A DNA stretch of 64,000 nucleotides from Spirochaetia bacterium (GCA_963666985.2 CAXXIA010000003.1:96001-160000); one strand, 5' to 3'. Shown: positions 1,824-7,068, counted from the stretch's first letter. Notes: a model not told the origin generated them from the sequence alone. Translations and numbers: made by a program.

Positions 1824-3972
1824 CTATTTTCGGTGCTTTATCTTCGTCGGTTCCCCAATGTACAAGAAGGTCCGTTTCGCAATGCTTGTTCCGTTCCAAA
1901 GTTTTTTCAAGAACGGCATAATCCAGTAATCCAGTCCGAAAGATTTGCCCGCGCCGCCCAGGAACGCTAAAGCCGCCGCCATATACCAGAAAATGGACGC
2001 ATCCGTCATCGCGCCGACAATGAGCATGATGCTGAAAACGAAGGATGCCGCCGCGGCCAGCCAGGTGAAAGCCCCGCCGATGAGCGCCAATCCGATAAGA
2101 ATCTCGAATACAACAATACCCGACTGAAAAAAGTGCGGAGCCAAGTTCACGGTATGCTGCGCCGCCCAGACATAAATGCCGAGGGGATTATCGAGGAGGG
2201 CACTCCCTCCGGAAACATGCCCGGCCGCTTCGACCGTCGCCGATGCCACCGCATCCGCGGCGTCCGCGACATGCGCGGCCGCAGAAGCAACCTGTGTTGC
2301 ACTTTCCGCGACGGCTTCGGATGCCGCGCTTACGGCATCGGCTCCACCATGGACGGCGCTCCGACGGCCTCCCAGCCACCCCCGACCACCGCATCCGCGG
2401 CGTCCGCGACATGCGCGGCCGCAGAAGCAACCTGTGTTGCACTTTCCGCGACGGCTTCGGATGCCGCGCTTACGGCATCGGCTCCACCATGGACGGCGGC
2501 TCCGACGGCCTGAGATGCCGCCGCGCTTCCCTCGGCGGCAACAGAAGCGCCGCTCACGGCATCGCCGCCCTGCGACCGGAACACTGACGAAATCATTCGC
2601 GCGATCCAGCCATCCGCCGAGCGCCTTCTTTATTCCTTGTATTAGCCACATCGTCCCGACATACATCCGCAGAGGCACAAGCCAATAGTTCGGAGTTTTC
2701 CAAGCGGCAAATCCCCCGATGAGGGACCGGTTGTTCCGGATATCAAGGATTTCATGCTTCAGATAGGCCCATACACCGTTCAGACCGACAACCCCGACTT
2801 GGTAGTAGAGATTAACCACGTGTTTCAGGGCCACGGCGAAGAATCCCGAGAGGGAGATGCCTCCGGTATGCGACACGGCGTATTTACTGCCGATGGAAAC
2901 CATGAAGCCGTGGTAGCGGCCCTTGTATTCGACTTCCCGGGCTTTTTTCCCGCGTCCCTCGGACTTTTCGAGAGCATCGATGATGTTGTGAGCGGCGGTT
3001 TCGGCGGTTTGCTCGGCCGCCTCAACAATCTGAGGATTCGGCCGTTCGTTCTCCAAAATCCAAACACCGTCTCCGGCAAGAAAGACGTTATCCCGTCCGG
3101 GGCTCCGCATGGTCCGATCCGCTTCCATGCGGCCGGCTTTGCCCGCCTTCAAATCCAGGCATCCCAGGAAAGAGCTGCCTTTCACTCCGCAAGTCCAAAC
3201 AAGAGTGGCCGCTTCCAGAGACGTTCCGTCTTTAAAATGGAACGCGCCTTCCTCGGCCTTGACGATCAGGGCATTCGTGCGGATCTCAACACCCTTTTTC
3301 TCCATATAGCGCGCGGCTTTCGCTCTCTGCTCCTCGGGAAGCATATCAAGGATATGTCCCAAAGCCTCGACGTTATAGATGGCCACCTCGTCTTCCGAAA
3401 GGTCGTATTTCCGGCATAAAGTCGGAAGGAACTCGATTAACTCACCCACCAGTTCCACACCGGTAAACCCGGCGCCTGCCACGGCAACGGTCATCAGTTT
3501 CCTGCGCTCGGCCGGATCGGGTTCCAATGAAGCCTCCTGAAATTTCGCTCAAGGGTCCCGCGAATCAAAGCGCGTCGTCAAGAGACCATAGGGATAACGT
3601 AAAATCCCGGATGCCCGGAATCCCGAAGTCGGCGGGTTCGCCGCCCGTCGATATAAGCACATAGTCGTAGGGATAGCGGCCGATGAATCCTTTAGCCTCG
3701 TTCGCCTCAAAATTCACACCGGTAATCTCGTCATGGATTACATTCACCCGAGTTCCTGAAAAAATTCGGTCATAGCTGATTTTCACCGAAGCCTGGGGCA
3801 CCCGGTCTCCGGCAATCTCATGAAGTTCGGTCATCAGAGTGTGGAACCGATTCTTGTCGACCAGCGTAATCTCCACATCCTTATCTTTCCGGTATTTTCG
3901 ATGGAGCGTTTTCGCCGCCTTGACGCCCGCATAACCTCCGCCAATAATCAGAATCCTTTTTCTCGGTGCCAT
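1824..3972 (-). CDS. ndh2: Type II NADH dehydrogenase with C-terminal membrane (DoxX-like) domain, Listeria EET Ndh2-like; frameshifted in this sequence
   Basis: N-terminal IIGGGYAG FAD motif (ORF 3565-4002, ATG at 3972) continues after indels near 3540-3565 into VAGAGFTGVELVGEL, LAGD and PQIVEAAEQ. It is followed by WLVPLRMYVGTMWLIQG and EILIGLALIGGAFTWLA..GAGKSFGLDYW membrane segments. Confidence 0.85.
2246..2511. repeat. Tandem duplication of about 125 bp (copies 2246-2370 and 2386-2511, period 140) inside ndh2
   Basis: The copies are identical except for one missing G (ggacggcgctcc vs ggacggcggctcc). They are separated by cccagccacccccga. Confidence 0.95.
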
Positions 3973-3998: not shown

Positions 3999-4982
3999 TC
4001 ATCGATCACGATTTCCCAGTGTCGCCGCAAGATCCGCCAGAGCATCTTTCGCCGCACCATTCGGTAGCGCTTCGGTGCACATAATCGCGCGCCGTGTGTA
4101 ATCCTCGACATATGTCAGAGCCGCCGCCGCCCCGCCCACCTCAACAACGCGGCGGCGAATTTTCGCGGAACGCCTTTTCGACAAAGGTTTATCCAGAATC
4201 CCCTCGAATTTTTCAGGATTCCGCCGGACCGCCAAAATAAGCGGCAGGGTGGCGATGCCGTCACCCGAATCCTTGCCGACGGGTTTTCCCAAAGCCTCCG
4301 GACTCCCGCCGTAATCAAGGATGTCGTCGAGAATCTGAAATCCCATTCCCAGAGCGTAGCCGTAACTCCTCATCGCTCCGCAGACGGAGTCCGAACTTTC
4401 GCCGACCCGCGCCCCCGCATATGCGGCCATAAGAAAGAGCGACGCTGTTTTTCCGGCGGCCTTTCTCTTGTAGCTCCTTAATCCCGAACCTTTCGCGGGA
4501 ACGAGGATTAATTCGGATTCACAGAGTCTCCCGACGCCTGCAGAGAGAAGACGCGCCGATTCCGGAGAAGCAAAATCCGCGACAAGCCCAAAACAGCGTG
4601 TCAGTACGTAGTCTCCGGCCAATACCGCTTTCTTAACCCCGTGTGCCGTATGGAGAGTCGCAACACCTCGGCGCATGGGTGATGAATCGACGATATCATC
4701 GTGGATCAGGGAGGCCAAATGAAGAAGTTCAAGAGCGGAGGCCGCACGATAAGTCTTCTCGGCATCGAACTCGCCGAGCCTGGCTCCCAGTATAAGCAAG
4801 GTTGACCGAAGCATCTTTCCCGGGCTTTCCAGCAGAGAAGCCAGATCGCCGCCAAGTAGAGCCGGATCCGGGGATACGGTATTTTTAATCAGTCTGCGGA
4901 CCTCCGCGATATCATGTTCCAGATATGGATGCCGCAAGCGGAATTCGTCGATTGTATTGGAAGAAATCTTTTTAATAGTCAT
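3999..4982 (-). CDS. Polyprenyl (heptaprenyl) diphosphate synthase, DmkB/HepT-like
   Basis: GKMLR, LIHDDIVD..RRG, GKTASLF and FQILDDILD..GKPVGKD motifs. Confidence 0.92.
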   Translation of the reverse strand: MTIKKISSNTIDEFRLRHPYLEHDIAEVRRLIKNTVSPDPALLGGDLASLLESPGKMLRSTLLILGARLGEFDAEKTYRAASALELLHLASLIHDDIVDSSPMRRGVATLHTAHGVKKAVLAGDYVLTRCFGLVADFASPESARLLSAGVGRLCESELILVPAKGSGLRSYKRKAAGKTASLFLMAAYAGARVGESSDSVCGAMRSYGYALGMGFQILDDILDYGGSPEALGKPVGKDSGDGIATLPLILAVRRNPEKFEGILDKPLSKRRSAKIRRRVVEVGGAAAALTYVEDYTRRAIMCTEALPNGAAKDALADLAATLGNRDR

Positions 4983-5101: not shown

Positions 5102-6028
5102 TTAATCCGCAAAAAGCTGCCGGGTATAAACAATGCCGATAAGAAGCATTGAGGCCAGAGCGAGAGTGAATGCAAGGAAAATACGCGAAATCCCCTGCAT
5201 GGAAATCCCTTTGGTCTCATGAGAGAATCCATTGCGATGCATCACGGAAAATTCCCGAACCGCGAAGCCGAAGAACGGTATGATAACAGCGGGGCTCCAA
5301 ATCGGAACCGGACCGAAAAGACCCGGGATTAACGGAAAAAGGAACGCCACCGCCGCTTCGGAGGCCGCGATGGCTTCACCGATTCGGCGTCCGACCATCA
5401 CTGAAAGGGTTTTCCTTCCCGCGGCGCGATCGCCGACGATATCGCAGGTATTGTTCACCGTAAGAACGGACGCAATGGCGAATGAAGAAGGGAGTGAGGC
5501 CATGAACACCGCCGAGTCGGGCCGGCCCGCTTGAACGTACCAAATAATGAGGAAAAAGGCCGATCCCAAAGTACCGCCTGCGAAAAACTCGCCCAAGGGC
5601 GTTCCCGAAAGGGGATGCCGACCTCCGTTGTAGAAATAACCCACTGCCATACAGCCGGCGCCTGCCGCCGCAACGGGCCATCCCGACAGGAACGCAAGCG
5701 CCAAGCCCAAAGGCACGGCCATGGCGAAAAGGCCGATTGAAACGAGCAGGGCCCAACCCCAAGGAACCCCTTCATGGACAACGACCTTGGACGCTTCTCT
5801 GTTATATGCCGGATCGTCCACGCCTCTACGGAAATCGAAATACGTGTTGAACGCCGTTGTCCCCATATCCACCAGAAGGGCGGCGATCAGCAATAAAGCC
5901 GCACGAACCGGTTCAATTCCGCCGGTTCGAAGCACGACATACAGACTTCCCAGAACATACGTGGAAATCGAGACAATCTTCGTCCGAATCTCGACGACCG
6001 ATAGAAATTGTCTTAAAGTCATTGCCAA
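5102..6028 (-). CDS. menA: UbiA-family prenyltransferase, MenA/DmkA-like (DHNA polyprenyltransferase)
   Basis: VEIRTKIVS, NTYFDFRRGVD, PLSGTPLGE and NNTCDIVGDRAAGRKTL motifs; multiple TM helices. Confidence 0.85.
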   Translation of the reverse strand: MAMTLRQFLSVVEIRTKIVSISTYVLGSLYVVLRTGGIEPVRAALLLIAALLVDMGTTAFNTYFDFRRGVDDPAYNREASKVVVHEGVPWGWALLVSIGLFAMAVPLGLALAFLSGWPVAAAGAGCMAVGYFYNGGRHPLSGTPLGEFFAGGTLGSAFFLIIWYVQAGRPDSAVFMASLPSSFAIASVLTVNNTCDIVGDRAAGRKTLSVMVGRRIGEAIAASEAAVAFLFPLIPGLFGPVPIWSPAVIIPFFGFAVREFSVMHRNGFSHETKGISMQGISRIFLAFTLALASMLLIGIVYTRQLFAD

Positions 6029-6261: not shown

Positions 6262-7068
6262 ATGAAAAAACTGATTTTCGTTACACTGGTTCTGTTCGCG
6301 GCGGTTTCGGCATTCGCCGGAAATTGGACGGACGGATTATATTTCGCGCAAGACGACGCCTTCGGCCGAACCGGCTGGAAATCCAACGTTACATTGGAAG
6401 TCCGCAACGGACGCATCAGAAGCGCCGTCTGGAACGGAACGAAAATCAACGGCGGGATGGATAAAATATCGGCTTCCGAAGCCGGACGGTATCCGATGGT
6501 TCAGCAAGGCGGTGCCCGTGACGATTGGCACATCCAGGCGAAACGCGTACAGAACCACCTCCTGAAGACTCAGGATCCTACCCAGATTTCCTATTCCGAC
6601 GCAGAGGGTCATACCGACGCCATCTCGGGCGCCACCATCCACGTCAGAGAGTTCTTCATTCTGGCTCAGAAAGCCCTGGCCGCGGGACCTGTGGATCGCG
6701 GTCCATATCGGGACGGTTACTTCCAGGCGGAAGAGGCGGTTTTCTCGCAGCAGAGCGGCTGGAAATCCTTCGCCCAATTCACCGTGGTAAACGGCACCGT
6801 CGTCCAGGTAAACTGGAACGGTTTCCACAAAGACGGCGGAGAAAGCAAGAAAATCGTATCCCAAAACGGTGAATACGGGATGATGGCCAATGGCGGCGCT
6901 CAAGCCGAATGGCATGTCCAGGCAAACAATGTGGAAGAATATTATCTCCGTACCGGCGGCCGGCCGCCCAGATTCCCGGATAACTACCACACCGATGCGA
7001 TTTCCGGTGCCACGATTGGGGTTAAACCCCTTTACGCTCTGGCCGAACAAGCTCTTCGCCGGCGATAA
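6262..7068 (+). CDS. Secreted protein with two FMN-binding domains (PplA-like flavinylated protein)
   Basis: Signal peptide MKKLIF...AVSAFA-G. Two internal repeats, each with GWKS..NG....WNG..SK...G.Y.M...GA...WH.QA and ending in HTDAISGATI. RBS AGGAG lies before the ATG at 6262. Confidence 0.9.
   Translation: MKKLIFVTLVLFAAVSAFAGNWTDGLYFAQDDAFGRTGWKSNVTLEVRNGRIRSAVWNGTKINGGMDKISASEAGRYPMVQQGGARDDWHIQAKRVQNHLLKTQDPTQISYSDAEGHTDAISGATIHVREFFILAQKALAAGPVDRGPYRDGYFQAEEAVFSQQSGWKSFAQFTVVNGTVVQVNWNGFHKDGGESKKIVSQNGEYGMMANGGAQAEWHVQANNVEEYYLRTGGRPPRFPDNYHTDAISGATIGVKPLYALAEQALRRR

Follow-up and report, generated by a model that had tools for sequence, protein, structure and literature searches.

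A spirochaete type II NADH dehydrogenase with four putative flavinylation motifs on a predicted periplasmic loop

The type II NADH dehydrogenase (Ndh2) encoded in a 64,000-nucleotide stretch of spirochaete DNA (hereafter the window) carries four conserved motifs on a loop predicted to face outward. These motifs are probably loaded with FMN by ApbE, which would give the enzyme a flavin relay on its own chain. To judge from its homologues, the motif-bearing loop is a real feature of the whole family, and in every sequence test applied the window loop behaved as an ApbE substrate, so that we predict it to be one. The window holds no unique biology beyond that of the family, the exact duplication in its loop being itself putative.

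The gene and the parts of its membrane tail were located as follows.
1824 to 3972, minus strand: ndh2-like gene, NDH-2 domain plus DoxX/DoxD-like membrane tail (Pfam, tblastn, model, atlas)
2625 to 2687, minus strand: TM1 of the membrane tail, with an R...G..W...G..K pattern (helix 432-455 of the P0013 model; alignment A1)
2133 to 2624, minus strand: predicted periplasmic loop, 164 aa, Ala-rich and acidic, joining TM1 to TM2 (charge bias)
1950 to 2132, minus strand: TM2 to TM4 of the DoxX/DoxD-like tail (P0013 model, alignment A1)

Both annotated pieces of the gene matched Pyr_redox_2 in Pfam, and the tail gave a weak DoxX/DoxD match below the cut-off; the atlas likewise assigned it to DoxX/DoxD. 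The closest intact homologue, P0013, has 696 aa and is 88% identical over the dehydrogenase part. A tblastn search with this protein matched the window gene in three frames. The AlphaFold model of P0013 resembled the NDH-2 structures 5kmq, 4nwz and 5na1 over about 403 columns, with target TM scores of 0.92 to 0.94. The Pfam matches and the model support two Rossmann folds, for FAD and NADH, and the NDH-2 fold, together with the C-terminal transmembrane DoxX/DoxD-like domain that marks FLEET-type Ndh2, albeit with the weak Pfam match for the latter. On sequence and model, the minus-strand protein is a membrane-tailed type II NADH dehydrogenase, for which NADH:quinone activity is predicted. Those relatives that carry an organism name came mostly from spirochaetes, and some from Clostridia.

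The model of P0013 places helix 432-455 first, then the loop and then three hydrophobic helices. Only one Lys or Arg was counted in the 164-aa window loop versus 17 Asp or Glu, while the flanks held four Lys/Arg in the 25 aa before TM1 and nine in the 41-aa C-tail. Across 160 homologues the Lys/Arg fractions were 0.03 for the loop, 0.16 for the segment before TM1 and 0.21 for the C-tail. Since the loop is poor and its flanks are rich in Lys/Arg, and the NADH domain is cytoplasmic, the loop is predicted to lie outside. This prediction takes the two helices ahead of TM1 to run in the plane of the membrane, as they do in other NDH-2 enzymes. The charge bias and the P0013 model thus agree with the preliminary description of a periplasmic loop between two TM segments, and we consider it very probable that the TM1-TM2 loop faces the periplasm. 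The R, G, W and G of TM1 were invariant in alignment A1; the hydrophobicity of this helix is weak, which is a point against a flavinylated loop. No His was invariant or near-invariant in TM1 to TM4 of alignment A1, and a haem cytochrome reading of the tail (MsrQ-, PepSY- or DUF4405-like) was ruled out on the grounds that its TM helices have no conserved His. Profile searches matched the tail to no solved structure at E up to 1.

Within the loop and its repeat, the following elements were distinguished.
2543 to 2563, minus strand: motif 1, DAVSGAS, full ApbE consensus (translation; covered by a contig of public run X1)
2459 to 2479, minus strand: motif 2, DAVSAAS, Gly replaced by Ala (translation)
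2319 to 2339, minus strand: motif 3, DAVSAAS, identical to motif 2 (translation, repeat comparison)
2235 to 2255, minus strand: motif 4, DAVASAT, most divergent, identical in P0013 (translation; covered by X1 contig 2168-2318)
2375 to 2395, minus strand: repeat junction, DAVVGGG, at the position of a fifth motif, garbled (translation; uncovered by the organism's contigs)
2246 to 2511, no strand: tandem duplication with a unit of 141 nt (47 codons), copies identical bar one base (repeat search of the assembly)

ApbE recognizes the consensus D-x-x-[ST]-G-A-[ST] (PMC12052999). Minus-strand translation gave all four motifs at the positions previously described and confirmed DAVSGAS as the sole full match; two motifs depart from the consensus at Gly and one at positions 4-5. 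The spacings of 28, 47 and 28 residues contain Gly-Gly breaks and do not all keep phase. In the 4.86-Mb genome, where D-x-x-[ST]-x-A-[ST] matched 150 times in 3.84 million six-frame residues, the window loop was the only place with at least three such motifs within 330 nt.

As assembled, the gene contains four single-base frame switches, near 3567, 3541, 2568 and 2358, the first two of which had not been listed before. Motifs 1 and 2 lie one frame off the upstream ORF and off motifs 3 and 4, as expected if one base was gained near 2568 (+1 indel) and one lost near 2358 (−1 indel). A 151-nt contig from X1 spanning 2459-2606 showed zero substitutions and lacked one base at 2568, so the frameshift there is an assembly error, and the +1 indel previously set near 2570 can be placed at 2568. 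The −1 indel suggested near 2358 fits the frame of the motifs and is visible solely from the comparison of the repeat copies (spacing 140 versus 141). Frame switches occurred in 4 of the 42 gene groups tested, window ndh2 among them. A FapA-like flagellar assembly gene (PF20250, PF03961; 110-1724, plus strand) is also split, into three pieces in different frames, and is probably broken by further single-base assembly errors. Given the X1 contig, this fragmented neighbour and the 4 of 42 groups, we treated window ndh2 as intact; it probably is so, which for three of the four breaks we infer.

The repeat as assembled (2246-2511) has a period of 140, 1.9 copies and a 99% match, and its net gain, the junction being garbled, is one motif. 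The identical stretch of about 42 aa exceeds the longest exact repeat in the 160 homologous loops (22 aa), so the duplication is either very recent or an artefact; it may be real in the organism or may stem from the assembly. When checked against runs X1-X4, loop pieces were recovered in X1 only, two of 151 nt (2168-2318 and 2459-2606). These abut exactly under a single-copy model and are compatible with one copy or two, and none of the contigs in the four runs crossed the junction. Small shares in the wastewater runs X2-X4 give no evidence of habitat or expression. P0013 shows the identical series, DAVSGAS, DAVSAAS, DAVSAAS and DAVASAT, and contains no exact repeat, so the four-motif design is independent of the duplication. 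The repeat that was said to have amplified the motifs is thus present in the assembly, but it adds a single motif to a set of four that P0013 possesses without it.

The conservation of the motifs was examined in 160 distinct loops of 54-182 aa. Left out of this set were the window's own ORFs, P0020 (frameshifted), an ORF that had no start anchor, all duplicates, and five unparsed sequences, the near loop-less L095 among them. D-x-x-[ST]-x-A-[ST] occurred 172 times in 107 of the 160 loops, versus a mean of 5.5 (maximum 13) when the loop cores were shuffled 300 times with their composition preserved, and the strict form 12 times in 11 loops versus 0.4. In 37 representatives (70% identity clusters), 40 motifs in 26 loops compared with 0.9 in shuffles. 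Control patterns remained at chance, both with a wrong last residue (22 versus 25.1) and reversed (4 versus 4.9). Under the widest pattern, copy number ranged from 0 to 6 per loop and tracked loop length (rho 0.77). Most relatives had one or two motifs, 65 of the 160 loops had a single one, and 13 had no acidic-led motif at all. Exact internal repeats of at least 12 aa were present in 15 loops, and in diverged repeats D, S/T, A and S/T were kept while the spacers had changed. Both motif conservation and copy-number variation, as anticipated by the preliminary description, were thus found in homologues, with up to seven copies in the Bacillota protein L200 (G550:C10), whose DAVTAAT units at 14-residue spacing form the longest array among the loops examined. 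These comparisons suggest that the number of motifs is altered by internal duplication, and that no particular number is required.

In a Bacillota sample of which 32 of 41 members were parsed, 16 of the 32 loops were short, with AGAS or SGSS, and fell outside the pattern. Minimal Bacillota loops of 39-42 aa keep a Gly-containing variant (VSGAS, VAGAS or VSGSS), the Asp often standing one residue further upstream; such minimal-loop Ndh2 proteins (L167, L173, L175, L177-L181, L183-L187, L189, L190, L192, L195, L197 and L198) offer a natural test of ApbE tolerance. Among Lactobacillales, [ST]GA[ST] was present in 30 of 37 loops read and a close variant in all 37. In the complete fmnA-dmkA-fmnB-pplA-ndh2-eetA-eetB-dmkB locus L231, the 628-aa Ndh2 carries TSGAS at the same loop position. 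The spirochaete L095 (CAZHNE010000055.1) is a near loop-less Ndh2::DoxX paralogue from a genome that also encodes the looped L074 (same assembly prefix).

The spacing between motifs follows the pitch of a helix. Taken at 100 degrees per residue, the 134 spacings that measure 7-40 residues gave a mean cosine of 0.49, versus 0.04 for jittered spacings; for the 32 spacings of the representatives it was 0.54, with a best scanned period of 3.60. AlphaFold draws helices in the loop of P0013, with pLDDT mostly below 60. In view of the 3.6-residue period and these low-confidence helices, a helical loop is likelier than a disordered one, which weakens the disordered tether envisaged earlier, and both features point to motif sites on one face of a helix.

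Whether such motifs can serve ApbE was judged from known sites. Seven residues suffice as a flavinylation tag, also in a surface loop although with lower yield; a Gly-to-Ala exchange leaves about 50% flavinylation, and Ser is used less well than Thr as acceptor (review, PMC12052999). The genome encodes an ApbE (PF02424, E 4.9e-91) in a 358-aa ORF without internal stop at C1:206945; its position away from window ndh2 is a point against a flavinylated loop. In 30 spirochaete NqrB/RnfD-family proteins, the aligned column, which we take to be the FMN site, had no Gly in five cases, and the variants included one DAVSAAT, from a genome of the same genus, and one DTVSSAS. The three remaining window motifs are degenerate, as had been stated, in being off the consensus, but in view of the DAVSAAT they need not be inactive. 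The same 30 sites show G-P-[TS] in place of G-A-T in 12 proteins, for instance DAVSGPT at C1:593571-595063 of G000 (others L131-L153). Gly at position 5 was rare in Ndh2 loops (6 of 64 motif instances in the 37 representatives versus 25 of 30 NqrB/RnfD-family sites), and this counts against flavinylation, as do the 16 of 32 Bacillota loops that fail the pattern and the 13 of 160 without an acidic-led motif. Published proteomic work names PplA and FrdA, not Ndh2, as FmnB substrates (PMC9973259), a further point against. A modified Ndh2 loop may, however, have escaped notice because it offers trypsin hardly any Lys or Arg to cut at. FMN_bind (PF04205) had no match in the window Ndh2 pieces or among the domains precomputed for 62 homologues. 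Elsewhere in G000, strict D-x-x-[ST]-G-A-[ST] motifs outside PF04205 matches occur at C2:205339, 1619716, 2030800, 2148893 and 2906637; these proteins, some with the motif near N-terminal lipoprotein-like stretches, are candidate ApbE substrates and electron acceptors.

Co-occurrence with ApbE was followed in 301 genomes of one order, judged to be Lactobacillales from their Ndh2 proteins and FLEET locus. Ndh2 was present in 173, of which 164 were looped, seven loop-less by sequence, and two, being fragments, set aside; 37 of the looped proteins were read and the remainder classed by match length. Loop-less Ndh2::DoxX proteins (532-559 aa, profile search) came from Leuconostoc, Weissella, Secundilactobacillus and Lactobacillus where named. 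ApbE was found in 163 of the 164 looped versus 2 of the 7 loop-less genomes, one of these two with weak pieces only, and with G933 scored negative because it was missing from the match list. The five ApbE-negative loop-less genomes also had no EetB. Three of them were placed on a quick tree that did not include L218, L222, L225 and L214; all three belong to one clade, and loop and ApbE may therefore have been lost together just once. The tree requires the loop label to change three times or more. Counter-examples exist. G782 has a looped Ndh2 (L251) with DTTSGAS beside eetA, eetB, dmkA and dmkB, and neither ApbE/FmnB nor PplA was found in its genome, an absence that either a gap in the assembly or a recent loss would explain; the Ndh2 of G035 (94% complete) is also looped, with no match to ApbE in that genome, and the loop-less G891 keeps ApbE. 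ApbE is common in general (274 of the 301 Lactobacillales genomes; 38 of 41 in the spirochaete survey), which weakens the co-occurrence argument, and among spirochaetes the 22 of 23 carriers with ApbE versus these 38 of 41 overall are uninformative as evidence. All 41 members of the Bacillota sample had ApbE, a figure that stands without a background rate. In 80 further loci, many of them on short contigs, the locus itself encoded ApbE in 36 cases, PplA in 34 and DmkB in 67. Taken together, the joint loss of loop and ApbE lends moderate support to an ApbE site.

Upstream of ndh2 lie genes for a polyprenyl synthase and a MenA-like prenyltransferase, with a PplA-like gene divergent from them.
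3999 to 4982, minus strand: DmkB/HepT-like polyprenyl diphosphate synthase (PF00348; TIGR02748 below cut-off; best genome match to L231 DmkB)
5102 to 6028, minus strand: DmkA/MenA-like DHNA prenyltransferase (PF01040; PRK13387 and PRK06080 below cut-offs; best genome match to L231 DmkA)
6262 to 7068, plus strand: PplA-like two-site flavoprotein (PF04205; NF041941 E 2.8e-8, below cut-off; L231 PplA best match)

The PplA-like protein carries DAISGAT at 6616 and 6994, and its N-terminus looks signal-like, without a lipoprotein Cys. The clustering with pplA, dmkA and dmkB known from FLEET-type ndh2 is thus represented by homologues, their NCBIfam scores being below the curated cut-offs; fmnB, eetA, eetB and fmnA are not part of the locus. 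An intact eetA/eetB pair stands alone at C2:1607470-1608280, away from apbE, rnf and ndh2, and for fmnA no clear orthologue was found in the genome, ECF-T-like matches reaching 24-33% only. EetB is a subunit that binds FAD for export, and in Listeria EET was unaffected when eetA was cleanly deleted (PMC9973259). The idea that Ndh2 replaces EetA/B was rejected on these grounds: both genes are intact elsewhere in the genome, EetB exports FAD, and Listeria keeps its EET without eetA. Neither MenB nor MqnA/D scored over cut-off in G000 (93% complete), so the quinone head group is probably scavenged.

Two other readings of the motifs have to be weighed. Flavinylation could be confined to the canonical DAVSGAS; the Ala-for-Gly copies would then be by-products left as repeats expanded within an Ala-rich helix, and the protein would be a single-FMN enzyme. 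The 65 of 160 loops with one motif, the dependence of motif number on loop length, the 15 loops with exact internal repeats and the rarity of Gly among the extra copies would all agree with this. We nevertheless consider it unlikely: in many spirochaete loops the sole motif is the Ala form (DAVSAAS, DAVTAAT), which must then be functional if any is, and the retention of D, S/T, A and S/T amid changing spacers, like that of helical phase, is hard to reconcile with mere by-products. Slightly less likely still, the motif would not be an ApbE site at all, serving as a structural helix motif or for another modification such as O-glycosylation of Ser/Thr, which is known from Ala-rich exported linkers of other bacteria. 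An Ala/Ser/Thr low-complexity exported linker with strong 3.6 periodicity would suit such a role, as would the replacement of most Gly in spirochaetes and the persistence of the motif in G782 and G035, where no ApbE was found. Against it stand the exact matches to the seven-residue ApbE consensus in many relatives, the identically worded NqrB/RnfD-family site, the loss of ApbE and EetB together with the loop, and the frequent presence of ApbE in the same locus.

We therefore retain loading of the outward loop with FMN by ApbE as the preferred reading. In the mechanism we propose, the FAD of the cytoplasmic NDH-2 domain would, with little doubt, oxidise NADH and reduce (demethyl)menaquinone, as is usual in the family, the quinone being made with DmkA/DmkB from a head group that is probably scavenged. 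As the tail has no conserved His, electrons likely cross the membrane by quinone and not by haem. EetB would supply FAD to ApbE, which likely attaches FMN to the loop: we are fairly confident of this for the last Ser/Thr of at least DAVSGAS, and lean slightly towards it for the Ala-for-Gly copies, which would be flavinylated less fully. Finally, the haem-free DoxX tail might bring a quinol or enzyme electron to the nearest FMN, from where the FMNs of the helix would relay it onward to free flavin, to Fe(III) or to flavinylated proteins of the periplasm, PplA-like or other; on this step our judgement is evenly divided. Given the potentials of menaquinones, electron transfer from quinol to FMN is likely uphill, which argues against a flavin relay and makes the exit of electrons the weakest step. 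A potential of −184 mV has been given for one multi-FMN protein (PMC12052999). The same energetic objection would favour a flavinylated loop that serves storage, sensing or local repair, with electrons leaving on free flavin or on a quinone that diffuses. In L. plantarum a diffusible shuttle is provided by DHNA (PMC9888254), and loop-less Ndh2::DoxX persists in Leuconostoc, Weissella and Secundilactobacillus, both in line with such a role. We regard it as improbable, because Fe(III) reduction can dispense with PplA in cases where it depends on EetB, which provides FAD for FmnB, and this speaks for another flavinylated carrier in the locus (PMC9864754, PMC9888254). Fe(III) reduction in E. faecalis requires Ndh3 and EetB and not PplA (PMC9864754), which fits a second FmnB substrate; the same source calls the exit route beyond quinone unknown. 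Flavin-dependent iron reduction in L. plantarum requires ndh2 and eetA/B and not pplA, dmkA or dmkB (PMC9888254), so the path does not always run through the product of DmkA/DmkB.

A flavin site on the outer loop of Ndh2 would explain the requirement for an Ndh and EetB but not for PplA, and would supply the missing step in passing electrons out of the cell. More broadly, and only tentatively, FLEET-type Ndh2 proteins may be ApbE substrates whose loop forms the membrane exit, drawn out in spirochaetes and clostridia into a duplicated, helix-phased, domain-free multi-FMN wire. If true, this would add a class of ApbE substrate, with bare motifs on the loop of a membrane protein, that FMN_bind-based surveys miss; it would also extend the pathway to diderm spirochaetes, and the wire, built on the dehydrogenase, would be to covalent flavin what a multihaem chain is to haem. 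No report of Ndh2 flavinylation was found in the main texts searched, which cover the primary papers in part (including PMC8837199, PMC7074142 and bioRxiv 2023.01.13.524026). Multi-flavinylated proteins were defined by their FMN_bind domains in Meheust 2021, the main text of which mentions neither 'Ndh2' nor 'DoxD' (PMC8238504). The substrates in the text of Huang 2024 are FMN_bind, NqrB/RnfD, DUF2271, Flavodoxin_4 and FMN_red proteins, Ndh2 not being among them; for FMN_red proteins, one or two sites on an unstructured tail were shown experimentally (PMC11334425).

With the FLEET Ndh2 of Listeria monocytogenes and Lactiplantibacillus plantarum, and Ndh3 of Enterococcus faecalis, the window protein shares the NDH-2 domain and membrane tail, and its gene likewise neighbours DmkA-, DmkB- and PplA-like genes. 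It differs in its host, a diderm spirochaete, and in carrying four motifs on a 164-aa loop where the FLEET Ndh2 of L231 has one TSGAS. Unlike in the FLEET locus, apbE and eetA/eetB lie elsewhere, FmnA has no clear counterpart, and the PplA-like protein has no lipoprotein Cys. The NqrB, RnfD and FMN_red substrates resemble window Ndh2 in having a seven-residue D-x-x-[ST]-G-A-[ST]-like site outside an FMN_bind domain. Compared with them, the window protein has a DoxX/DoxD-like fold in which no flavin-binding pocket was identified, and its predicted sites stand in tandem on one loop with helical phasing. With the multi-flavinylated proteins (PMC8238504, PMC11334425) it has in common several predicted FMN sites, variable in number, on one extracytosolic chain. 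It lies outside their definition by more than one FMN_bind domain (PF04205; Meheust 2021): in place of such domains, window Ndh2 presents bare motifs 7-40 residues apart, fused to a dehydrogenase.
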